Shown here: positions 833 through 28,600 of the stretch, one piece after another | Layout: every line of letters starts with the position of its first letter | How positions within the stretch are numbered: position 1 is the stretch's first letter | Virus record (IMG/VR): IMGVR_UViG_3300025011_000016 | Reading direction: 5' to 3' (one strand) | Origin: a virus | Taxonomy: Duplodnaviria; Caudoviricetes | DNA: 64,000 bases | Position numbers and translations under genes: made by a program | The notes under the pieces: model-generated | Seen by the model: the letters and a program-made list of their open reading frames with translations, nothing else | What the model was told of the DNA's origin: nothing | The model's database searches: none

Positions 833-1425
833 TTGAAAAAGAGATTAAGGTTCTAAATATTGATAAAACTACTATTGAGACATTATTGATATCTAAAGGT
901 TGTGCGTTATGTAAGGATGAGATTCAAGAGAATATTACCTATAGGGGAGATAGTTTAGGTTCCATACGATTGAGGAAAACTACATCTTCATTAACTGGTA
1001 ATGTATCATATGAATTAACTCGGAAAACTGATATTGAGAAACTTGATAATGAAGAATGTGTAATGCAAAATGAAAAGAGTATTGATATATCTGAACAAGA
1101 ATTTTGTACTGCTCAAAAACTATTTAACTGTATAGGTTTAATACAGGGAATTAGAGGAAAGAAACATCGTAGAAGTTTCCATTTAAATGGATTCTTATAT
1201 GAAATTGATAAATGGGTAGATGAAATTCTACCCATTACCTATTTAGAAGTAGAAACTCAAAATCCGAATTTAAGAATTATTAATGGATTAAAACAAATTT
1301 GGTCTGATGATGAAATTGCTACATTAGTTATAAGCACCGATGGTATTGGTACATTAGTTAAAATTCATAAGAATGTTGGAATTGAAGCTTATATTGAATC
1401 CCTTATGGTATTTCGTAGATCATAA
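829..1425 (+). CDS. CYTH-superfamily protein (class IV adenylate cyclase / triphosphatase-like)
   Basis: N-terminal ExExK (IEKEIKV), IRLR, K.R, IDKW and YLEVE match the CYTH pattern. Confidence 0.75.
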   Translation: MIEKEIKVLNIDKTTIETLLISKGCALCKDEIQENITYRGDSLGSIRLRKTTSSLTGNVSYELTRKTDIEKLDNEECVMQNEKSIDISEQEFCTAQKLFNCIGLIQGIRGKKHRRSFHLNGFLYEIDKWVDEILPITYLEVETQNPNLRIINGLKQIWSDDEIATLVISTDGIGTLVKIHKNVGIEAYIESLMVFRRS

Positions 1426-1437
1426 GTAAATAATATT

Positions 1438-1447
1438 TATATATTAT
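1438..1447 (+). promoter_or_regulatory. early-type promoter motif TATATATTAT
   Basis: The exact 10-mer also occurs upstream of genes at 5609, 7152, 9242, 15822, 16615, 18833, 24910, 62642 (+) and 23521, 58720, 59474 (-). Confidence 0.6.
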
Positions 1448-1527
1448 TAATGTGAAAGGAGGTCATTGATGATAATATTTAAATACTCCAGTGTGATAAA
1501 ATAATATGAAGAAAGAAGGGAACCATA

Positions 1528-4500
1528 ATGGCAGTAACACCACCAAAGAAAGTGGTCCCAAATTTATCATTGAAAGAAACATTGCAAGAGAAGGAACAAT
1601 TATATCATGGTAAAGATGATATATTCGGAATGACATTACTTACCAATCCAGGGTATATTAGTGCATCTCGAAACATTATGTTTACTTCTCATTTAAGACA
1701 ATTCGTAAATTTGAATAAACCGGATTTCCCAAAAGTATTAACGAATTATGAAAATCTTGTTGGTAAACATTCAACTGGATATTTCAAACCTAAGAATGAT
1801 TTAATCGTTGTGGATAAGATACCCAAGTTTAATGATATAAATGATGCAAATCATTTATATCTATTATTCTTATATGATAAGAAGACTAATACTTACTCCG
1901 TTATACAGAAAAAGATCGTTGAAGATCTAACAGAGAAGTTTGGTTTTAAATATAAGAATGATCTTATGGATTCTAAATCTATCGGAGATAAAATACAAGG
2001 AGGTAAAACATTATATTCATCCACATCATATGATGAAGATGATAATTATAACTATGGTAGAAATATTAAGTTTATGTATCTACTTGAAAACAATACTATT
2101 GAAGATGCCATAAAGTGCTCTGAATCGTTATCTAAAGAAATGACTTCGACTGAGGTTGAAACTGTAAAGATATCATTCAATGATAATGAAATCATGTGTA
2201 ATCTTTATGGCAACAATGATGAATACAAAGGTTTTCCAGATATTAATGAAAGGGTTAAAGATAAGATCATATGTGCCAAAAGAAGAATTCATAACAATCA
2301 ATTATTATTCGATCTAAAGAAATCAAATCTACGTAAGATTAATTTTATGTCAGATAACTTATTCTTTATTGATGGAAAGATTGTTGATATTACTATCTAT
2401 TCAAATAAACCTATTGGAGAAATTGAAGATAATATCTTTAATCATCAAATGTTAAAATACCTTAAAATGCAAAAAGAATTTTATACTAAAGTTTTAGATA
2501 GGTGTAAAAAGATAATTGCATCTGGAGCTAAATATTCAAATGAAATAAATTTCTATTATAAGAAAGCTAAGAATATATTAGACGATAATTACATGTACAA
2601 GGAAGAAGATAACAGTGTATTTAGTAATATGGTTATTGAATTCCTTGTTGAACGAGAAGTTCCTTTATCAGTAGGACAGAAGATTACTGGTCGTTACGGT
2701 AATATAATTGCTGTATTTTCTTTAATTGTCGGGGATATCCTTATAGCTTAAACTACTATTAGTAACAAGTTTAAGATTGGACAATTCGCAGCCAAGATTG
2801 TTAATAAACAATAAGGTTCAACGACTAGAGTGAAAACTCGTAGATTCGAAAGAATTGAAATGGGAAAACGATAGATTTTAATCTATTGAAGATATAGTCT
2901 AATATCCTAATGGAAGTTAGGGAAGTTCATAAGAGAACTGCATTATATAATAATGTGAATACTTGAATAAAGGTATTATAAGTCAGATCATACCAGATGA
3001 AGAAATGCCATTTCTTGAAACTGGTGAACGTGTCGATTGTATATTCAACTCCCTAAAATTTTGGGGCTTTATGTAGTGATATATAATGAAAACTACTTTA
3101 ATTGCGGGAAAATTCTTATGGCTTTATAATATAAAGATTGGACAATCCGCAGCCAAGATTGTTAGTAAACAATAAGGTTCAACGACTAGAGTGAGAACTC
3201 GTAGATATTAATATCGAAATTGGTAGAATCTTCTATATAGAAGATTATGAGATAGTCTGGTATCCTATATAACTATAGGGAAGTTCATAAGGGAACTGCA
3301 TTAATTAATAATTACTGTGAACACAACGAGGTGTGATAAATCGCTTAACTGAGAAGGTCCGGGCGATGTAAAACCTTTCTAATTGCGGGGACATTTGTTA
3401 ATTTCAATTTACCAAGTTAATATATTAATGGCTTAGTCCAATCAACTAAGGTATGGTAATAAGAATTGAAATTGAGTAATCCGCAGCCAAGATTGTTAAT
3501 AAACAATAAGGTTCAACGACTAGAGTGAAAACTCGTAGGTTTATTTATAAGCCGAAACGGAAGGCTGGTAATACTTAATATTATTAGAAGATATAGTCTA
3601 AAACATTTGTGAACTCATTTCAGTTATATGAGCAGTCAATAAATTTTATATGTAATCGCATAAGAGAAAGAATTGCGATAACAGAAGATATCTCTATAAA
3701 AGAACAAATGGTATTTAGTATTGTGGGTCATTTTAATCCTGAAGAACAAAGAAGACTTAGGATATATTATGATAAGTTATCAGATAATGGTAAGGATCAT
3801 TTCTTCGATGATATAGTCAAGCAAGGTATCTATATACACATTCCTCCACTTTGGGAAGACGTATGTTTATTCGATAAACTAAGAGCAATATATGCTGAAT
3901 TCACATGGATAAAACCATACTCAGTTTATGTGAATAAATTTGGAAGAAAGATCAAAATGATGAAGGATTTAATTGTCGGAGAAATGTATGTTCTTAAATT
4001 AAATCAAACTTCAAAGAAAGGTTTTTCAGCCAGATCCACTGGTTCGTTATCGAAGAGAGGAATTCCTATTTATTTATATGGGACTATATAGAGTAATCTA
4101 TATTGTGAAAACATTTTAATTGACGGGAAACTCCTTAGAACTTCTTAATTGAAGATTGGACAATCCGCAGCCAAGTCTCTTATAATAAGAGAAAGGTTCA
4201 ACGACTAATTTAGAGCTCAAGTGAGTGGATGAGAATCCTTTTAAATCAAAATAAATGTCATCCGTAAAAATAATAAATAACGGATGGTGATATAGTCTTG
4301 TATCCTATATAGTTATAGGGAAGTTCATAAGAGAACTGCATAGATTAACGACCTATGTGAAAGTATCGGAGAAATCAAATAAAGCAAAAACCCATCAAGA
4401 ATTATATCCACATACGCCTCAATTTGTAGGGGCTGTTGTATAGTAATATATAATGAATCTTTCTTAATTGACGGGAACCTTCTTAGAGCCTTATTTACTA

Positions 4501-5552
4501 AACTATAAGTATTATAGTGGCCAGAATAATTAACTGGGTATAGTAATAAAAATAAGGATTGGATAATCCGCAGCCAAGATTCTTATATAAGAATAAGGTT
4601 CAACGACTATCGAAAGCTTTTAATTAAGTTAGTAGAGTAAGCTCACAAGTCAATAATGGTGAGTTAAAACAGAAAGCTCCTAGAAATAGGATAAAGATAT
4701 AGTCTGCTATCTCAAGGAAACTTGAGGAGTTCATAATGGAACTGCATAAATTGACGATTTATGTGAACAAAAAAGGATACGAATTGGAGATTACTTATAT
4801 AGTTTCCCTGCATAGTAATATGCAGTTTAACAACTCTTTTAATTGACGGGAAACTCCTTAGTGCTTTATAATATAAAGATTGGACAATCCGCAGCCAAGC
4901 CTCTTTATGAGAGAAAGGTTCAACGACTAGAGCATTGCTCATAGATTTACAAGTTAATGGTAAGTCGAAATGGAGAGCTCTATTAATAAACTTTATTAAT
5001 AGATGAAGATATAGTCTGCACCTTAAAGAAATTTAAGGACAATCTTTTGAATTGTAATACATGTTACGAATGTATTTAACATATTGGCAGGAAAATATTA
5101 ACAGTATGATAGGTGTCGATCCAGACATCATAGCTAAACTACATTTATTCTATAGGTCTTCAGTTGTTGGAAGAAGAAACTTAGGTGAAACTTTGGCAAC
5201 TAGACTTAAGTTATTAAATGATTTTAAGTATTCTGCGGAATTCAAAAATAGAAATGTTGAAATTTTACAGGCATATTTAAAAGCTATGGGCGTAAAGATT
5301 GTATTTGAAAATGAGAATATGTATATTGAAATCTATACTGATCAGTTAGAAGAATATTCATCTGAGGGTAGGATATATATATGTACTAAACGTGAGTTTG
5401 AAGCCGTTCAGAGAGAAGCAGAAGTTCGCAGAGAGTTCCGTGAGGATAAGTGCTTAGTGGGAACTCATGCTGAAGTTGAAGCTATTATTCAAGCTCGTAT
5501 CAGCGATCTAAACAAACGAGATACTCATTATGTAATTGACATAAATTTATAA
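1528..5552 (+). CDS. rpoB: phage multisubunit RNA polymerase beta subunit, C-terminal half; 7 exons, about 755 aa after splicing (probably the non-virion enzyme)
   Basis: Exons 1528-2700, 2966-3054, 3329-3345, 3610-4067, 4369-4419, 4777-4791, 5088-5552 total 2268 nt, in frame. Joining restores GQKITGRYG|NKG, FNSL|GVINRL|N, SARSTG and TP|IRIGD|QE, matching beta motifs GDKxxGRHGNKG, NPLGVPSRMN, HARSTG and RFGEME. Confidence 0.9.
2701..2965 (+). ncRNA. group I intron, ORF-less (beta-C intron 1)
   Basis: 5' exon TACGGT|, IGS ATTGCTG. Core AATTGTCGGG / ATTCGCAGCCAAG / GTTCAACGACTA / AAGATATAGTCT. Ends ...AATACTTG. Confidence 0.9.
3055..3328 (+). ncRNA. group I intron, ORF-less (beta-C intron 2)
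   Basis: CTCCCT|AAAA pairs with TTTTGGGG (U-G at the splice site). Full P/Q/R/S. Ends ...ACACAACG. Confidence 0.9.
3346..3609 (+). ncRNA. group I intron, ORF-less, apparently lacking P9 (beta-C intron 3)
   Basis: ATCGCT| pairs with IGS GGCGAT. Full P/Q/R/S. Only about 10 nt (AAAACATTTG) separate S from the inferred terminal G. Confidence 0.75.
4068..4368 (+). ncRNA. group I intron, ORF-less (beta-C intron 4)
   Basis: TTCCT|AT pairs with ATGGGA. Full core. Ends ...AAGTATCG. Confidence 0.9.
4420..4776 (+). ncRNA. group I intron, ORF-less (beta-C intron 5)
   Basis: GCCT|C pairs with GGGGC. Full core with a longer P5 extension. Ends ...AAAAAAGG. Confidence 0.85.
4792..5087 (+). ncRNA. group I intron, ORF-less (beta-C intron 6)
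   Basis: GGAGAT|T pairs with AGTTTCC. Full core. The 3' site is G5087 (gives RIGDQE) or, less likely, G5090. Confidence 0.8.
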
Positions 5553-5582
5553 GGTGTGTTTATCACACCTTATTCTTTTTTT
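5550..5582 (+). terminator. intrinsic terminator after the beta-C gene
   Basis: AAGGTGTG-TTTAT-CACACCTT followed by a T tract. Confidence 0.75.
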
Positions 5583-5693: not shown

Positions 5694-6518
5694 ATGATCC
5701 TTAAGAAAAATCTATTACCTATTATTAATACAACTGGAATTGCAAAGGTTATTGTGGTTGCTACTCAAAAAGGTGGATCTGCTAAGACAACATCTACATG
5801 TAATCTAGCTGTTGCTATGGCGGAACGAACAGGTAAACGAGTTGCCATAATTGATTTCGATCCACAAGGTCATGTTAGTACAACTTTTGGATATGATAAG
5901 ACAGCATATAAATCTACAATATATGATGTCCTTATTGGAGATCAACCATTAAGTTCAATCCGAGTAAAAACCAAATATGGAGTAGACATATATCCATCTA
6001 ATAGGGAACTTGCCAATATTGAACATGAAATCATCTTAAACAGAATTATGTTTCCAAGAGACAAGTTTGTGCTTAGAAATGTTATTGATGATATAAAACA
6101 TAGATATGATTATATCTTCATTGATACACCACCGAGTTTAAGTTTGATAACATTAAATGCTCTAGTGGCGGCAGATGAAATTCTTATTCCTGTCCAAATG
6201 GAACCATTGGGTGCTGACGGTCTAGTTGAATTGTTAGAAACTATAAGTTCAATAGTTAGACAATACAATCCCGATATTGTTATCAAAGGGGTTATTGGTA
6301 CTATGCTCGATAGACGAGCTAAGTCTATGGTTACTCAACTTGTCCAGGATATAAATATGTTCTGTGACAAAAATAAGATTCATATCTGTGAGACTTTCGT
6401 TAGGAGAGCGCCACGAATGTCTTATATTGGCGGTATACCTGTTATCTTAGGTGATCGTAAATGTGAAGCCGTTATGGATTATAAAAAAATATTAGAGGAG
6501 CTGTTCTGTTATGAGTAA
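5694..6518 (+). CDS. parA: ParA/Soj-family partitioning ATPase
   Basis: Deviant Walker A (KGGSAKTT), AIIDFDPQG, YIFIDTPP, ALVAADEILIPV. Confidence 0.9.
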   Translation: MILKKNLLPIINTTGIAKVIVVATQKGGSAKTTSTCNLAVAMAERTGKRVAIIDFDPQGHVSTTFGYDKTAYKSTIYDVLIGDQPLSSIRVKTKYGVDIYPSNRELANIEHEIILNRIMFPRDKFVLRNVIDDIKHRYDYIFIDTPPSLSLITLNALVAADEILIPVQMEPLGADGLVELLETISSIVRQYNPDIVIKGVIGTMLDRRAKSMVTQLVQDINMFCDKNKIHICETFVRRAPRMSYIGGIPVILGDRKCEAVMDYKKILEELFCYE

Positions 6519-7092
6519 GAAAGAAAAAATGCAACGTAGTACGTTAACACATTCACTTGAGCCGGTTGAATCACAAGGCTTTGATGACGAAGATTCTATT
6601 AGAAATGAGGAGGAAACTGCAATGAACAAAATTACCGAGGGAGAACAATCTAAACCGGATGGGAATATTGAAAATTTAATCGGGAGTATCAACAAAGAAG
6701 AAATCACTAGTGATAGTCAAATAAATGAAGTTTCAGGCACTACGGATGATAATGATCAACGTGTCCGTGTTCAATTACCCGAAAACGCGCTATATGATCA
6801 CAATGCAAAACAAGTGGTTGCCTTTGATTGTAGAGTTGGCGTTATATTGAATGGTGTGGAATTCAATCCAGAACAAATTGTTCAGAGAATATGGGATAGT
6901 ATCGAACGAAAAAGACTTGAGGGAATTAACGAGCCGCCCCGTATCATTCAATGGAAAAATAAACGTGAAGTCGAAAAGCCTAAACTAATAATTATTCCGG
7001 ACGTTCCTAAACAGGTATCAAAACCTGTAGTTACTCATAAGCCGGGTGCAGCTATATCAGCAATTGGAAGACAATTCGGAATGATGATTTAG
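6511..7092 (+). CDS. hypothetical protein translationally coupled to ParA
   Basis: 8-nt overlap with the parA stop. Acidic low-complexity N-half. No ParB motif recognised. Confidence 0.75.
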   Translation: MSKKEKMQRSTLTHSLEPVESQGFDDEDSIRNEEETAMNKITEGEQSKPDGNIENLIGSINKEEITSDSQINEVSGTTDDNDQRVRVQLPENALYDHNAKQVVAFDCRVGVILNGVEFNPEQIVQRIWDSIERKRLEGINEPPRIIQWKNKREVEKPKLIIIPDVPKQVSKPVVTHKPGAAISAIGRQFGMMI

Positions 7093-7186: not shown

Positions 7187-10100
7187 GTGAAAGATATGGA
7201 TAAGCAAAATATAATATCACAATTAAGTGATATTCATCAAAGGTTATTAGAAAAAGAAGATTTTGTTGATACTATACAGAGACTAGAATTAATGAAGATC
7301 AATAGACTTATCAATTATCTTTTATATGCAATTACTGAATATGATCCAGATGACAAATTAATACTTCAATTATTAATAAGGATATTGCAAAATATCTTTA
7401 ATAATAGTAGTGAAATATCTCCTGTGACCGATGAGGATTATGATAAATTATATGAGTTAAACAGACAATTTAATAATGAAGAAATTGTTGGATCGTCTTT
7501 TAATAAATCCAATAAGATAATTTCAAGTCATAAATATCCTGATTTGAGAGGAACTCTAGATAAGGTCCATTTCATTAGAATTAAAGATAAGGGTAAAGAC
7601 AAACGAAGATCTATAGAAGATTTTATTAATACTGTAGAAAATAAAATAGGCAGATCTTTAACTAAGGATGAATCATTCGCCTATCTATTTCCTAAATGGG
7701 ATGGTATATCATGTATATTCGAATGTGATGAAAATGGTAATACCGATAAGGCATTATCTAGAGGTGATACTGATATAAATGAAGCGGTCGACTGGACTAA
7801 ATTGTTTAAAGGATCTAATTTCAAGTATGTGTTCGGTAATGATATAAATAGATTATTTGGTTTAAAAACAGAGATTGTAATGAGTCGTTCAAATTATAAA
7901 TTAATATGTGAAAAAGAAGGAGATCTTAAAAGTCCAAGGAGTGCCGTATCGTCTATATTAACTTCATTAACTGGTGACACATCGAATTTACCATATCTAA
8001 CTATAATACCTTTACAGACTCAGGAGTTTGAAACTAAATCTATATATACTCCAACTATAGTATATGATGAGTTTCCATACAGTGGAGGATATTTAAACAA
8101 TTTAGATGAGATCGAATTAAGAATGTTGGAGTTAAGAGAACGTATTTATACTGAAATGGATATAGATACAGATGGTGTGGTTTTTCGTTTAGCTGATCCA
8201 TATATACAAAAACTATTGGGTCGGGAAGATAAGATAAATAAATATGAGTTTGCATATAAATTCCCTCCAGAACAAAAGAAAACTATAATTAAAAATGTTA
8301 ATTTCTCAGTTGGTCTTTTAGGTTCAGTGCGACCAGTAGCAGTAATAAAACCTGTTACAATAAAAGGTAATACTATAACCAATATATCATTGGGTTCTAT
8401 AGATAGATTTGAAGAATTGGATTTAAGATTAGGTGATGAAGTTATAATAAAATATGATGTTATACCATACCTATCAATAGATTCAACATGTAGAAAAGGA
8501 GATGGGACTAAGTTTACAACTCCAACAAAATGTATATATTGTAAGGAAGAATTAGTTAAAGATCCCATATTGAAATGTATTAACGAAAAATGTAATTGTC
8601 GAATTATAGGTAAGATTCTAAACTATACTAGTAAGATGAGTATTTCAAATATGGATGTTGGAACAGTAACCACTTTATTTGAAAATAAGTTATTACGATC
8701 TATTGGTGATCTATATAAACTCAAAGATCATAAATCTGATATAGTTTCATTAAGTGGTTTTGGTGAAAAATCCTTTAATAATATTATTAAAGGTATTGAT
8801 TCAAGACGAGATGTTTATGATTATGAGTTATTGGGTTCATTGGGTATTACAGATATAGGTAGGAAAATGTTTAAGCGAATTTTAAATATATATTATATTG
8901 ATGAACTTATAGATTCAAGTACATGAGTCTCATTGCATAGTGATATGTAATAGTAATTACTTTAATTGCGGGGATCTCCTTAGAACTTAAAACACTCTAA
9001 AGTAATAATGTTTAAGATTGGACAATCCGCAGCCAAGATTCTTAATAAAGAATAAGGTTCAACGACTATCCCAGTGGATGTGAAATTCATCATTAGGAGT
9101 AGGGCTCAAGTGAGTTGGGTGAAATCCCATTAAATCGAAATGAGTAACCCCATTATAAACCATTATAATGGGTGAAGATATAGTCTGTGCTTTAAGGAAA
9201 CTTAAAGATATAACTTAATCGTAAGTCCTAAAAATTTCATTTATATATTATTACTATGATACTAACAAATAATATAAGAAAGGAGGTGAATTAAATTGAT
9301 TAAAACTTTTAAAACAAGAATACGACCGACGAAAGAACAAGAAGTATATTTAAACAAATGCTTTGGATACAGAAGGTTTATATATAATAATGCTTTAGAA
9401 TACTTTAATACGATCTTAGAATTCAATGGTAATAATCTGGATAAAACATTAAAGAAGTTCTTTAATAAGTTTGATTATATCACTAATATATATTCTAAGA
9501 AAGAAAAAGAACCTGAACTGGAATGGACTAGGGAATATAATAAAAACATAAAGGATCAGGTATCTAGTGATTTTAATATAGCTGTTAATAGATTCTTTAA
9601 CGATATTAAAAATAAGAAGCGATGTAAACTTCATTTTAAAAGAAAGATCCATGGAAATGGGTCTTTTAGAATATACAATAAAAATAAAGGTAATGTTAAA
9701 ATTCTTGATAAAAACATATTCTCTTTTATTATTAATAGAGAATATGGTCATATGTCATTAAAAACATATGAAGATATAAGCTTTTTATATCATCATGATA
9801 TAAAAACTATGTCTATTCGTATGAAGAATTTTAAATATTATGTTTCATTCACCTATGAATTGGACATTCCAAAGCATGATCATGAGAAAGACATCATAGG
9901 TATAGACTTAGGGATACATAATCCAGTAGTTTGTTTTGATGGAAAAGATGTCATAGCTCCTAAATTTCCGAAAGGAATTATTAAGAGACTAGAGAAGAAA
10001 GTCGATAAGTTTTCAACGATAGTTTCTAAGAAGAAATATGATAAACGTAATCCATCAAAGAACTATATAAAAGCGAGAACCAAGCTTAATGATATTTATA

Positions 10101-10952
10101 TTAAAATAACAAATATCAGAATGGATTATATCCAGAAGGTATCTACATTTTTAGCTAAAACTTATAAAAACGTTATAGTTGATGAATTTAGTTTTAAGGA
10201 TGTATTAACAGAGTCTGATGGTATTGAGCGTATAAATAGAGGTATACACAGAGTTGGTGCCTTTACATTTACCACAGTGTTAAAATATAAATGCCACTTT
10301 TATGGTAGTGAATATATTTTAGCATTACCTAACAGTACGAACACATGCTCTGTTTGTAATCATAAAGTTAAAACTAAAATGAAGTTATCTCAAAGAGTCT
10401 TTAATTGCCCACAATGTGGACATATAGATGATAGAGATAACAATGCGGCTATTAATATCTATAATACATTTAAACGATCTTTATTAACTAACGTAAATAA
10501 AGATTTCGCCGTTGGTCGGACGGTTCAAAGAACCTAAACGGTTAAGTTATTATGGTATCTAACGAATACCATTAACACGACAGTTATGCCTAAAGAATAA
10601 GATGGGAGGGCTGTTATTAATCCGTGGGATTAAAGAAATAACAGCCGTTAAAATTATTGAGGGCATAAAGTCGAATAAAAAACTTATTGATTTATTACGA
10701 TCCGAGATTAATTTAAGGAGGGATGTAAGACGATATACAATTAAAGTATGTTTTACTAAAGTTAGAGATAAAGATTTTGAGAAATTTCTTGAAAGTAAGA
10801 ATGTATTGGTTCTTGAAAAATATAATAAGGAGGTTGATGTGTTAATCATACCTTATAAAGATATTGATTCAGTCAAAGTTACTACTGCGAAGAAAGATGG
10901 TAAGGATATCGTAACCATCGATGAAGCTTATAAGATGTTTGGTTATAAGTAG
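7187..10952 (+). CDS. ligA: NAD-dependent DNA ligase, 2 exons (about 698 aa)
   Basis: KWDG adenylation motif, SRGD, DGVV, AYKFPP, a Cys4 zinc finger and HhH repeats in exon 1 (7187-8914). Exon 2 (10584-10952) continues ELID|LCLKNK... into a BRCT-like C-terminus. Confidence 0.92.
9242..9251 (+). promoter_or_regulatory. early-type promoter motif inside the ligA intron, upstream of tnpB
   Basis: TATATATTAT lies downstream of the ribozyme core, 45 nt before the tnpB start. Confidence 0.55.
9296..10537 (+). CDS. tnpB: TnpB RNA-guided nuclease (IS200/IS605/IS1341-type)
   Basis: N-terminal HTH (RIRPTKEQ...CFGYRRFIYN), RuvC-I GIDLG, RuvC-II VDE, CxxC-CxxC zinc finger, RuvC-III DRDNNAAINI. AAGGAGGT RBS with TTG start. 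Confidence 0.93.
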   Translation: MIKTFKTRIRPTKEQEVYLNKCFGYRRFIYNNALEYFNTILEFNGNNLDKTLKKFFNKFDYITNIYSKKEKEPELEWTREYNKNIKDQVSSDFNIAVNRFFNDIKNKKRCKLHFKRKIHGNGSFRIYNKNKGNVKILDKNIFSFIINREYGHMSLKTYEDISFLYHHDIKTMSIRMKNFKYYVSFTYELDIPKHDHEKDIIGIDLGIHNPVVCFDGKDVIAPKFPKGIIKRLEKKVDKFSTIVSKKKYDKRNPSKNYIKARTKLNDIYIKITNIRMDYIQKVSTFLAKTYKNVIVDEFSFKDVLTESDGIERINRGIHRVGAFTFTTVLKYKCHFYGSEYILALPNSTNTCSVCNHKVKTKMKLSQRVFNCPQCGHIDDRDNNAAINIYNTFKRSLLTNVNKDFAVGRTVQRT

Positions 10953-14500: not shown

Positions 14501-15746
14501 ATCTATATGAAAGTATACGTAAAGGACCAAATTCCTTGGGTTTTAATAAATAGGCCCATGATCTTTTAATTGCGGGAAACTCCTTAGTACTTCTATATGA
14601 AGATTGGACAATCCGCAGCCAAAATTGTTGATAAACAATAAGGTTCAACGACTAGAGTATAACTCGTAGATATATAAGTTAATGATATATCGAAATATAG
14701 AACTATCGAAAGATAAAGAGATAGTCTGGTATCCTAATTAACATTAGGGAAGTTCACAGGAGAACTGCATTATTTTACGAATAATGTGAACTCATCGAAT
14801 AAAAATGATAATAATATCTCAGTTAAATATCGCGGCATACACCCGAGTTATCTGGCCCGCGTAGATATTAACGTTTGCGGTGAACGTAGAAATATAATTG
14901 CCGCCTTTTCTTTAATTGACGGGAACTCCCTTATAGCTTAAACTACTAATAGTAACAAGTTTAAGATTGGACAATCCGCAGCCAAGATTGTTATAAAACA
15001 ATAAGGTTCAACGACTAGAGTGATAACTCGTAGATTCGAAAGAATTGAAATGGGAAAACGATAGAGTTATTCTATTGAAGATATAGTCTAATATCCTAAT
15101 ATAAGTTAGGGAAGTTCATAAGAGAACTGCATAGATTGATAAACTGTGTGAATAAATGAATTCAGACCCTAGAAATAAATTTGGGGCAATATCGAGTGAT
15201 CGTTATTGTTAAACTACCTTGACTGCGGGAAACTTCTTAGAGCTTTAAATTGATAAAGATTGAACAATCCGCACCCGATATTCTATATAATAGAATAAAG
15301 TTCAACGACTAGAGCATATTTGCTCGTAGATATAAAGTTATATCGAAATTAGTAGAATCTCTTAGGAGATTATGAGATAGTCTGGTATCCTATATAACTA
15401 TAGGGAAGTTCATAAGAGAACTGTACTATTTAACGAATAGTATGAACACACGGGAACTAGTGGTATTATAACACCATTCTGTAAAACTAGTGGATTATTC
15501 TTCGATGGTGCATTTGAACCAGAAAGTTTTAAATATGATTTTGATAAGGAGATAACTGACTTTAGAAAATCAACTAGTAATAACATAATTGTTGATACTC
15601 ACTATGATAATATATCTGAGTATTTTGAAGGTAGAGAACGATTTAAAGAAATGAATAGTCGAATCAAAATATCAGAGATTGAACGAACTGATAATAGTAA
15701 GTATTATATTAAAATTAAGCTTGCTAGTAATACTGATGATATATAA
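11526..15746 (+). CDS. rpoB: phage multisubunit RNA polymerase beta subunit, N-terminal half; 7 exons, about 556 aa after splicing
   Basis: Exons 11526-12505, 12792-13023, 14189-14235, 14520-14541, 14798-14881, 15159-15170, 15453-15746 total 1671 nt, in frame. YYLVKGKRHSLLYQL corresponds to FIINGxERVxVSQL. Joining gives KYTL|KGPNSLG and RGIHPSYLARVDINVCG|NSDP|GTSG (beta GPGG and [23 protein letters not shown]). Confidence 0.88.
12506..12791 (+). ncRNA. group I intron, ORF-less (beta-N intron 1); closest 'empty' relative of the two TnpB introns
   Basis: GGAT|TA pairs with TAGTCC. Full core. The 3' domain GTCTGTGCTTTA...CTAACGA...TAACACTCAG parallels that of the TnpB introns. Confidence 0.9.
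13024..14188 (+). mobile_element. group I intron carrying an HNH endonuclease in P6 (beta-N intron 2)
   Basis: TGAT|A pairs with TTGTC. Q at ~13176 and R at ~13994 are separated by the ORF, with arms CATCTTTATA / TATAAAGATG. Ends ...AACCTGGG. Confidence 0.85.
13270..14040 (+). CDS. intron-encoded HNH homing endonuclease
   Basis: GYEAVQL, IHRLMAHHF, VHHKD..NK.N..L, QKEN. Its last codons overlap the intron R element. Confidence 0.8.
   Translation: MKINVPLVTNNYSINSEGFIRNDKFNRILTRWKNNRGYEAVQLSCIDGITRSFTIHRLMAHHFIPGFDISDRSIVVHHKDSVNKTNSLDLLTVCTQKENIKYSIEEGNKPNGEKHPMGKFPDELANKIVALLQKEKSTDEIFNILDLEVKKNMRIFINDLRAKRTRLYLTEGLDLKKHVQEKHDINLVKRVIRYMKIGMTVDNIINMIGKGNAGRHERERYSSLIQRIHDGKAWGRLYKDDSSTTNDDYMVIKIKM
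14236..14519 (+). ncRNA. group I intron, ORF-less (beta-N intron 3)
   Basis: CCCT|AAA pairs with TTTGGGG. Full core. Ends ...AGTATACG. Confidence 0.9.
14542..14797 (+). ncRNA. group I intron, ORF-less (beta-N intron 4)
   Basis: GGGT|TT pairs with AGGCCC. Full core. Ends ...CTCATCG. Confidence 0.88.
14882..15158 (+). ncRNA. group I intron, ORF-less (beta-N intron 5)
   Basis: GCGGT|GA pairs with TTGCCGC. Full core. Ends ...AATAAATG. Confidence 0.9.
15171..15452 (+). ncRNA. group I intron, ORF-less (beta-N intron 6)
   Basis: CCCT|AG pairs with TTGGGG. Variant core ACTGCGGG / ATCCGCACCCG / GTTCAACGACTA / GAGATAGTCT. Ends ...ACACACG. Confidence 0.88.
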
Positions 15747-27900: not shown

Positions 27901-28600
27901 AAATAAGAAGCATCTTATATAAGATGATGATATAGTCTGAACTCATATGAGAATATGAGAGAGTTTACTTTATATTATCTAATAAATAATATTAACAAAT
28001 TGATGGGTAAATATTGCTCATATAAAACTTCTTTAATTGACGGGAAACTCCTTAGAACTTCTTAACTGAAGATTGGACAATCCGCAGCCAAGATTCTTAC
28101 ATAAGAATAAGGTTCAACGACTAGAGTGTGACTCGTAGATATAAAGTTATATCGAAATGAAAAGCTCTCTTAATAAGAGATGAAGATATAGTCTAATATC
28201 CTATATAATTATAGGGAAGTTCATAAGAGAACTGTATAGAGTTACGATCTATATGAATACCATGGCGTTTTATCCTAATATGATTATGGCTTTTAATATA
28301 TCACCAAATTGTATAATCGGTAAATTACTCTTAGACACAACCATAGAAGACCTATATAATATCAAAGATATTGAAGCCGATATATATGATTGTGGGCGAG
28401 ACTTCGTAGATAACATGTTAATTAACAATCCTGGTAACATGGGCAGTAAATGGTTTAATCTTCCGAAAATAGAAGAACTTAATGAGTTAATACGAGAGAA
28501 GTTCTTAATGAATAAGAAGACTAAACTAATTATACCTGACTCATATAAAGATAAGTTATTTATTGAGAATCTAGTAATAAATATTAAAGGAGTGAAATGA
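24990..28600 (+). CDS. polB: split family-B DNA polymerase, N-terminal chain (3'-5' exonuclease plus motif A); 5 exons, about 606 aa
   Basis: Exons 24990-25778, 26758-27218, 27471-27699, 28003-28008, 28265-28600 total 1821 nt, in frame. ExoI LDIEV, ExoII WNMS|FDVPY, ExoIII YNIKD, motif A VVDMD|MG|AFYPN. Confidence 0.88.
25779..26757 (+). mobile_element. group I intron carrying an HNH endonuclease in P6 (pol intron 1)
   Basis: GAGT|A pairs with TGCTC. The P4 pairing is compensated (TGCTGG/TCAGCA instead of TGCGGG/TCCGCA). R at ~26582, S at ~26675. Ends ...CTGTTTG. Confidence 0.88.
25946..26563 (+). CDS. intron-encoded HNH homing endonuclease (NUMOD4-HNH-like)
   Basis: YSISNYGSI, GYVHTSL, SRLVAWEF, VNHKDINRANNYYENLEWVT..EN. 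Confidence 0.88.
   Translation: MYIVIRKDKEVFKLSTYPGIKKDMYSISNYGSIRNNVTNEIFFPTSRNSAGYVHTSLCTESFKVYTSVLVSRLVAWEFCDGYDKELNRVEVNHKDINRANNYYENLEWVTRGENTKFAYVHGNRKVIVPDSRGPRAKIRGSLNPKNVFSEEFVHELCQLFTDGKSTKEILKIFNTSKKLNTQLYSLLMTLKHRKGWGHITEKYVY
27219..27470 (+). ncRNA. group I intron, ORF-less (pol intron 2)
   Basis: CGGT|ATT pairs with AGTGCCG. Full core. Ends ...ATTATAG. The join gives RQTV|FLKNR. Confidence 0.9.
27700..28002 (+). ncRNA. group I intron, ORF-less (pol intron 3)
   Basis: GGAT|AG pairs with TTGTCC. Full core. Ends ...CAAATTG. Confidence 0.85.
28009..28264 (+). ncRNA. group I intron, ORF-less (pol intron 4)
   Basis: TGGGT|AA pairs with TTGCTCA. Full core. Ends ...TACCATG. Confidence 0.85.

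Follow-up and report, generated by a model that had tools for sequence, protein, structure and literature searches.

The Staphylococcus phage Twort gene orf142, studied by Landthaler and Shub in 1999, reportedly contains several self-splicing group I introns of one family within a single protein gene, and exon skipping between these tandem introns is said to occur. Among Bastillevirinae phages, a short exon is enclosed by two group I introns within phiNIT1's gene for ribonucleotide reductase, and in SIOphi an internal exon is skipped (PMC11878797). There is also a group I intron in a multisubunit RNA polymerase gene of the jumbo phage PhiPA3, where the occupied site is immune and an intron-less competitor is cut (PMC11620839). 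Here we describe a phage RNA polymerase gene that is interrupted by six group I introns of one family. The gene lies at positions 1528-5552 on the plus strand of a 64,000-nucleotide (nt) stretch of viral DNA (Duplodnaviria; Caudoviricetes; IMG/VR record IMGVR_UViG_3300025011_000016), called the window below, and is a homologue of gp089 of Bacillus phage AR9, the C-terminal half of the beta subunit (beta-C) of the non-virion RNA polymerase. Coordinates are those of the window, plus strand, unless stated otherwise.

Joining the seven exons gives 2,268 nt that encode 755 amino acids (aa) with no internal stop codon. The protein encoded by the joined exons can be aligned with 643 residues' overlap to AR9 gp089 (E = 4e-122), and none of the six junctions falls at a gap. 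The motifs at the junctions, GRYG|NKG and NSL|GVINR|LN, stand opposite GRYGNKG and NPLGVFNRLN in AR9, and RGIP|EKS...HTP|IRIGD|QEN stands opposite RGLPAKS...KTPVRIGNME. We take these motifs to be the ones that line the active site in bacterial beta (in Escherichia coli, GRHGNKG, NPLGVPSRMN, HARSTG and GGQRFGEME). The protein belongs to the AR9 gp089/phiKZ gp71 type of beta-C, being colinear over its full length and having the motifs GRYGNKG, NxLGVxNRLN, ARSTG and RIGxxE. Exon 1 is 42.5% identical to beta-C of AR9/PBS1-type jumbo phages (tblastn) and matches the AR9 non-virion RNA polymerase chain 7S00_C with E = 3e-73; the PDB chains matched by the beta-C protein are 7S00_C and 7OGP_C, and gp089 itself is contained in the solved structures 7S00, 7S01, 7UM0 and 7UM1. 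The 89-nt exon alone, with its 29 codons, matches Pfam PF00562 (E = 1.6e-7) and bacterial RNA polymerase beta chains in PDB (E ~2e-5). Judged by these alignments, the gene is the AR9 gp089 orthologue in a giant groundwater phage with its own multisubunit RNA polymerase.

The gene is organized as follows. Exon 1 (1528..2700, 391 codons) ends in GRYG, and its final U pairs with a G of the guide GCUGUA in intron 1 (I1, at site S1; 2701..2965, 265 nt, phase 0). This intron scores 56.8 bits against the Rfam group I model RF00028, has the guide pairing P1 UACGGU/GCUGUA and ends in a 3' tail of two stem-loops (SL1 and SL2) and GAA. Exon 2 (2966..3054) is 89 nt long and contains 29 codons and the first 2 nt of a Leu codon. 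It is followed by intron 2 (I2, site S2; 3055..3328, 274 nt, phase 2, 76.0 bits against RF00028, P1 CCCU/GGGG), which also has the tail. Exon 3 (3329..3345) has just 17 nt, which complete the Leu codon, encode G V I N R and supply the first base of the next Leu. Intron 3 (I3, site S3; 3346..3609, 264 nt, phase 1, 56.6 bits, P1 AUCGCU/GGCGAU) has neither a P9 hairpin nor the tail. Exon 4 (3610..4067, 458 nt) is colinear with AR9 gp089 and is followed by intron 4 (I4, site S4; 4068..4368, 301 nt, phase 0, 78.7 bits, P1 UCCU/GGGA, tail present). Exon 5 (4369..4419, 51 nt, 17 codons) stands opposite AKSKNFKEHKDLYSKTP of AR9, and the same stretch is contiguous in two related contigs, L002 and L016. 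Intron 5 (I5, site S5; 4420..4776, 357 nt, phase 0, 74.0 bits, P1 GCCU/GGGC, tail present) is separated from intron 6 by exon 6 (4777..4791), whose 15 nt encode I R I G D opposite VRIGN of AR9. Intron 6 (I6, site S6) is at 4792..5087 (296 nt, phase 0, 94.6 bits, P1 GGAGAU/GUUUCC), and exon 7 (5088..5552) runs from QENIN to the stop codon, colinear with AR9 and the relatives through residue 755.

All six introns pass the gathering cut-off of 50 bits (56.6-94.6) for RF00028, a covariance model of the conserved catalytic core (P3-P8, with the guanosine site in P7). The last base is G in all six introns and U in each of their 5' exons, and in each of the six a guide sequence 10-22 nt into the intron pairs with its own upstream exon so that a U.G pair lies at the cut. 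The junction of intron 1 is ambiguous, with AAT on both sides, and was resolved by the terminal-G rule together with the P1 pairing. In-frame stop codons occur 7-16 codons past each 5' splice site, but this is near chance for 30% G+C and was discarded as evidence. As judged from the fold scores and the junctions, all six introns are expected to self-splice.

An earlier note on this DNA had placed six introns in or beside the most conserved beta motifs, separated by exons of 89, 17, 51 and 15 nt, and these coordinates hold to the base in the Rfam matches and the AR9 alignment. It had also remarked that the open reading frame (ORF) track shows only three fragments; there are indeed just three ORFs of at least 100 aa over the gene (1528-2751, 3609-4091 and 5061-5552). 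That production of full-length beta-C depends on six correct splicing events follows from the gene structure. Colinearity with AR9 beta-C had been set beforehand as the test of the finding, and the continuous alignment across all six junctions leaves the finding intact.

The junctions are also supported by related phages. A protein search with exon 1 gave 119 gene models; the same query recovered no relatives among the viral contigs of IMG/VR. The junction sequences of the window are found uninterrupted in the relatives L003, L002, L005 and L016, and the joined frame is colinear with these uninterrupted alleles as well as with gp089. L003, for instance, reads GGCCGTTATGGT-AATAAAGGT across S1 without interruption, and L002 reads ACTCCAATACGTATTGGGGATCAAGAA across S5 and S6, again without interruption. 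L003 (68% protein identity) has none of the six introns and shows a change of frame near residue 498. This change, at L003:6505-6515, causes the intron-less allele to be called as two proteins of 509 and 210 aa; possible explanations are an error in sequencing, a genuine frameshift and a split gene.

The other relatives have a single intron each. L002 (80% protein identity) has only an S3 intron (3304-3596 of that contig), inserted at the same nucleotide as I3 and with the same short 3' end. L005 and L006 (63-66%) have only an S1 intron, also at the same nucleotide. The single intron of L004 (66%) lies 4 nt downstream of S2 and is related to I2, and that of L015 and L016 (64% and 46%) lies 3 nt upstream of S6. 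In these shifted-site introns (L004, L015 and L016) the guide matches the shifted exon end. The L016 intron (5810-6902 of that contig, IRMG|EQE) contains in its P6 loop a 226-aa ORF for an HNH_3/helix-turn-helix nuclease, which shows that nuclease-armed members of the family target the S6 motif. Homology among the 119 models ends at S1 in 76, at S3 in seven, at S5 in six, at S6 in ten and near residue 556 in seven, although some models may stop there just because the contig does, and longer ones were excluded by the length limit of the search. The S sites are thus hot spots that are singly occupied across the clade, the six being combined only in this phage among those sampled. Gene callers give three unrelated fragments here and most of the related models end at the same intron sites, so that the annotation of RNA polymerase genes in jumbo phages is systematically wrong.

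Two contigs from other samples, made with other assemblers (L008 and L009), are 99.99-100% identical to the window over the whole six-intron gene. The structure is therefore no one-off product of assembly. Repeats do confuse assemblers at this locus: several contigs break at the repeated cores of the introns (L010, L011, L013 and L014 end there), and another, L012, joins I1 to I3. It could be argued on these grounds that the gene is a metagenome assembly artefact built from the repeated cores, or else a decaying pseudogene. A shuffled assembly, however, would not reproduce colinearity with AR9, and the 4-kb structure is identical in the two assemblies from other samples. As to decay, the seven exons are in order and in frame with no stop and no motif lost, and the ribozyme pairs covary. 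We regard both versions of this explanation as extremely unlikely.

The fold of the introns was compared in a set of ten, namely these six and four from relatives. The six are 58-73% identical pairwise over their whole length, and 25 of the 36 pairs of the consensus fold show compensatory changes, so that the ribozyme folds are under selection. Of the P9 hairpin, an element that aids the choice of the 3' splice site, I1, I2, I4, I5 and I6 each have a covarying copy, and I3 and the same-site intron of L002 have none; in I3 just 10 nt separate the GATATAGTCT element from the terminal G. The L002 intron stands alone in its gene with the same short end, so the lack of P9 belongs to the intron lineage and is independent of any neighbouring intron; help for I3 from the intron 17 nt upstream is accordingly disfavoured.

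A comparison of the parts of the introns shows that I1, I2 and I3 are mosaic. There is a block of 73 nt in the core of each (2773..2845 in I1, 3134-3206 in I2 and 3468-3540 in I3) that is 90-96% identical among the three, and 57 nt are exactly the same between I1 (2787-2843) and I3 (3482-3538), 695 bp apart. The earlier note had described the intron cores as near-identical. This is true of I1-I3 but fits I4-I6 less well, the same block there being ~70% identical. The 5' part of I1 tells a different story from its core. With the S1 introns of L005 and L006, its first 72 nt share 83-85% identity, as against 47-51% with I2 and I3. The 73 nt that follow reverse this, sharing 90-96% identity with I2 and I3 as against 70-71% with L005 and L006. 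The same reversal between 5' part and core is seen when I3 is compared with the S3 intron of L002. Fisher tests of the mosaic gave p = 0.003-0.006 for the core and p = 3e-5 to 1e-11 for the 5' part. Read most simply, the pattern means that I1-I3 had separate, site-specific origins and that their cores were then homogenized by gene conversion within the gene.

An alternative is that one founder intron spread inside the gene, for example by reverse splicing at short sites matching its guide. The nearly identical cores of I1-I3 would fit such a history, as would the fact that I2, I4 and I5 all follow CCU, have GGG guides and share the same tail. However, the 5' parts of I1 and I3 resemble introns at the same sites in other phages far more than they resemble the neighbouring introns, and S1, S3 and positions beside S2 and S6 are singly occupied in relatives. 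For I2, I4 and I5, the comparison at the DNA level yielded no relative at the same site, which leaves room for founder spread in the case of these three. As an account of the array, we consider a single founder unlikely.

The homogenized core, together with 5' parts that match same-site introns elsewhere, bears out the suggestion of the earlier note that the cores serve as recombination substrates. Contig L012 (ena:ERZ28564009 scaffold_92665) would be a second instance, with the reservation that it may be an assembly collapse. In it, window positions 1416-2843 run on into 3478-4169 by way of the shared core; this amounts to an exact 695-bp deletion between I1 and I3 with exons 2 and 3 gone. 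The hybrid intron, if spliced, would join GGT to TGA and the genome would thus be defective. L012 is either a real defective recombinant or a collapse of k-mers by the assembler.

The introns of the gene belong to a family that is spread over the whole window. The family core AAGGTTCAACGACTA, allowing up to two mismatches, occurs in 24 copies within the 64 kb. Examples lie at 9054, 12629, 13991, 14355, 14640, 15003, 15297, 26578, 27317 and 27819, and further ones at 28109, 32138, 32494, 41276 (-), 42379 (-), 57122 (-), 57427 (-) and 57735 (-). There are 18 matches to RF00028 at the gathering score in the same window, so that Rfam misses about one quarter of the intron family. Consistent with this, the introns of the relatives L002, L004, L005 and L006 (at S1, S2+4 and S3) are detected by Rfam at neither threshold, though they can clearly be aligned with I1-I3.

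I1, I2, I4 and I5 run about 45 nt past the end of the Rfam model into a fixed 3' module. This consists of a hairpin of invariant sequence (AGUUC-AUAAGA-GAACU), a second hairpin that covaries at six of its seven pairs, GAA, and then 4-7 nt before the terminal G. The copies in the gene are at 2924-2965, 3282-3328, 4322-4368 and 4728-4776, and with 11 more elsewhere in the window (e.g. at 15113, 32643 and 57638 (-)) there are at least 15 in total. A further copy was seen at L007:2503-2550. The tail of I4 (4320-4361) and that of an intron in the jumbo phage Vibrio phage vB_pir03 are 100% identical over 42 nt. The Vibrio phage intron interrupts the RNA polymerase beta' gene at NAD|FDGD, is otherwise very different and has no tnpB. 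For the final UGAA of the module, UUCA in the first hairpin could be an alternative partner, which would make a switch or pseudoknot possible.

All six introns are ORF-less. The ORF list has no sense-strand ORF of more than 50 aa inside them, and no intron-encoded HNH, GIY-YIG or LAGLIDADG gene was found in any of the six. An antisense intron ORF of 76 aa is a by-product of the conserved core and no gene, and the antisense ORFs at 4116-4220 (-), 4712-4942 (-) and 8980-9093 (-), which share VVEPFS/VVEPYS, are likewise the reverse translation of the intron core. None of the six is an IStron (a group I intron with an IS200/605-type tnpB), as none has a TnpB or TnpA gene inside. There is a TnpB intron nearby (8915-10583), whose ribozyme is 59-64% identical to all six and so of the same family, although the six are without cargo. 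There is a loose resemblance between the 3' module and the 3' end of those introns of this genome that carry TnpB. The possibility that the six are miniature IStrons served by TnpB was rejected and is retained only within the very unlikely proposal given next: the 5' exon ends (CGGT, CCCT, CGCT, TCCT, GCCT and AGAT) share no TAM-like (target-adjacent) motif, I6 is just marginally closer to the TnpB intron (64%, compared with 59-62%), and the tail is present in the Vibrio phage intron that lacks tnpB.

A broader proposal is that the ORF-less introns are mobile, or are defended, in trans. The 3' module would then be a handle for a trans-acting protein, either a nuclease/TnpB-type guide complex or a maturase, and unspliced intron ends with the adjoining exon would guide cleavage, in co-infecting phages, of RNA polymerase alleles that lack introns. 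The repeated module on ORF-less introns is what prompts this proposal, which we judge very unlikely.

Taken together, the data suggest, and we consider it probable, that the array consists of six ORF-less group I introns of one family that self-splice, arrived separately, underwent later conversion and are carried as selfish passengers. Each intron would be excised by a two-step reaction initiated by guanosine, the guide of P1 setting the 5' cut and the terminal G marking the 3' cut. The micro-exons would act as the 3' partner of one ribozyme and as the 5' partner of the next. This arrangement is most pronounced in exon 6, which is almost fully used: nt 2-10 form a 9-bp P10 with intron 5, and P1 of intron 6 takes up nt 10-15. 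Splicing of I5 and I6 is therefore probably sequential. Similarly, the last 6 nt of exon 3 make up the exon strand of P1 of intron 3. Mis-joining by exon skipping would be a risk for such an array, and it has been observed experimentally in Twort and SIOphi (PMC11878797).

As to origin, mobile introns would have arrived separately at the conserved active-site motifs by means of homing nucleases that were later lost or acted in trans. Separate arrival is suggested by the relatives that occupy S1, S3, near-S2 and near-S6 singly and by the HNH_3 ORF in L016. Gene conversion between neighbouring introns would then have homogenized the cores. Once in place, the introns would be selfish passengers, their known consequences being immunity of the occupied sites to the matching nucleases and lethality of imprecise loss. 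The standard view is that homing elements settle at conserved targets where imprecise loss is lethal (PMC12908238), and accumulation at the active-site motifs fits this view. On the evidence of the sequence, the array is a real, extreme variant of the known invasion by selfish introns.

Several observations weigh against this interpretation. The exon part of P1, 6 bp in I1, I3 and I6, is just 4 bp in I2, I4 and I5. P10 is weak (2-4 bp) in five of the six introns, that of intron 5 being the longest, and intron 3 has no P9 at all. There is no homing nuclease gene in or adjoining the six introns, which leaves current mobility unproven. Finally, the core is always the best-conserved part of group I ribozymes; this makes the case for conversion somewhat weaker but does not affect the contrast between 90-96% and 70-71%.

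The array could instead be a selected regulatory device, in which six ribozyme reactions act as a timer or as a sensor of guanosine triphosphate (GTP) or Mg2+ for RNA polymerase output. Group I splicing requires guanosine and Mg2+, any inefficiency would be compounded over six serial steps, and a published speculation has phage introns in core genes acting as a GTP 'molecular switch' (PMC11878797, Discussion). Close relatives, however, run the gene with zero or one intron, so that the array is not required for its regulation. Furthermore, the same family is represented by at least 24 copies spread across many genes of the window, and the introns are placed where homing elements usually sit, in conserved motifs. 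The sequence offers nothing by which to tell a sensor from a parasite. A selected regulatory role of the array is not indicated by the data, and we think it improbable.

The surroundings of the gene were also examined. AR9 g089 is an uninterrupted gene of 665 codons flanked by a recombinase-like gene and a gene for an NAD-dependent ligase, and the order recombinase-like gene to NAD-dependent ligase is common to this phage and AR9. In the window, a CYTH-like gene (829-1425) lies directly upstream of the polymerase gene and a ParA/MipZ-type ATPase gene (5694-6518) directly downstream. In relatives there is a tubulin gene (PhuZ/TubZ-like) a few kb upstream. A terminator-like hairpin followed by a T-run (5549..5573, plus strand) marks the end of the gene; the terminator-like matches inside it are merely the P1 hairpins of I2 and I5. 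In the promoter scan, sigma-70-type matches were not enriched (28 observed, 28.8 expected).

In comparison with known systems, Twort orf142 is said to have three introns, compared with six here, and to be a structural gene; we know of no report of 15-17 nt exons in it. Very short exons are a feature of fungal mitochondrial cox1 (e.g. in Agaricus bisporus), which has a dozen or more group I introns, but that gene belongs to an organelle and its introns mostly encode LAGLIDADG proteins and depend on maturases. Our search of the literature on phage micro-exons and six-intron phage genes found no precedent beyond Twort, the Bastillevirinae and Jug phages. AR9 is of the same phage lineage and has the same class of host gene. 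In AR9, an intron of the late gene g189 carries the early gene g190. AR9 introns often have nuclease ORFs and g089 is uninterrupted, whereas all six introns here are ORF-less. The Bastillevirinae differ in having 45 introns over 37 genes of the whole subfamily, far fewer per gene than six, and in that the host genes are those of DNA metabolism and terminase rather than RNA polymerase (PMC11878797). PhiPA3 differs in having a single intron with its own HNH nuclease, gp210, and in that competition has been shown experimentally, while the present array is known from sequence (PMC11620839).

The gene illustrates the extent to which self-splicing introns can colonize a virus. Seven pieces make up the active-site region of an essential enzyme, and two of these have fewer bases than a typical primer. 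In the 15-nt exon there is a natural test case for the sharing of one short exon by two ribozymes, as a partner for both P10 and P1. The mosaic introns provide sequence-level evidence of concerted evolution of tandem phage introns by gene conversion. According to Bryk and Belfort, writing in 1990, homologous intron cores of phage T4 reportedly recombine within one genome, the events being laboratory-selected deletions between distant genes. Here, in contrast to T4, there is a natural conversion patch among tandem introns, together with one possible deletion contig. Finally, no fewer than 24 introns of a single family occur in the 64-kb window, a density several times that of intron-rich gut jumbo phages, which have about 18.5 introns per genome of 360-402 kb (PMC12880540).

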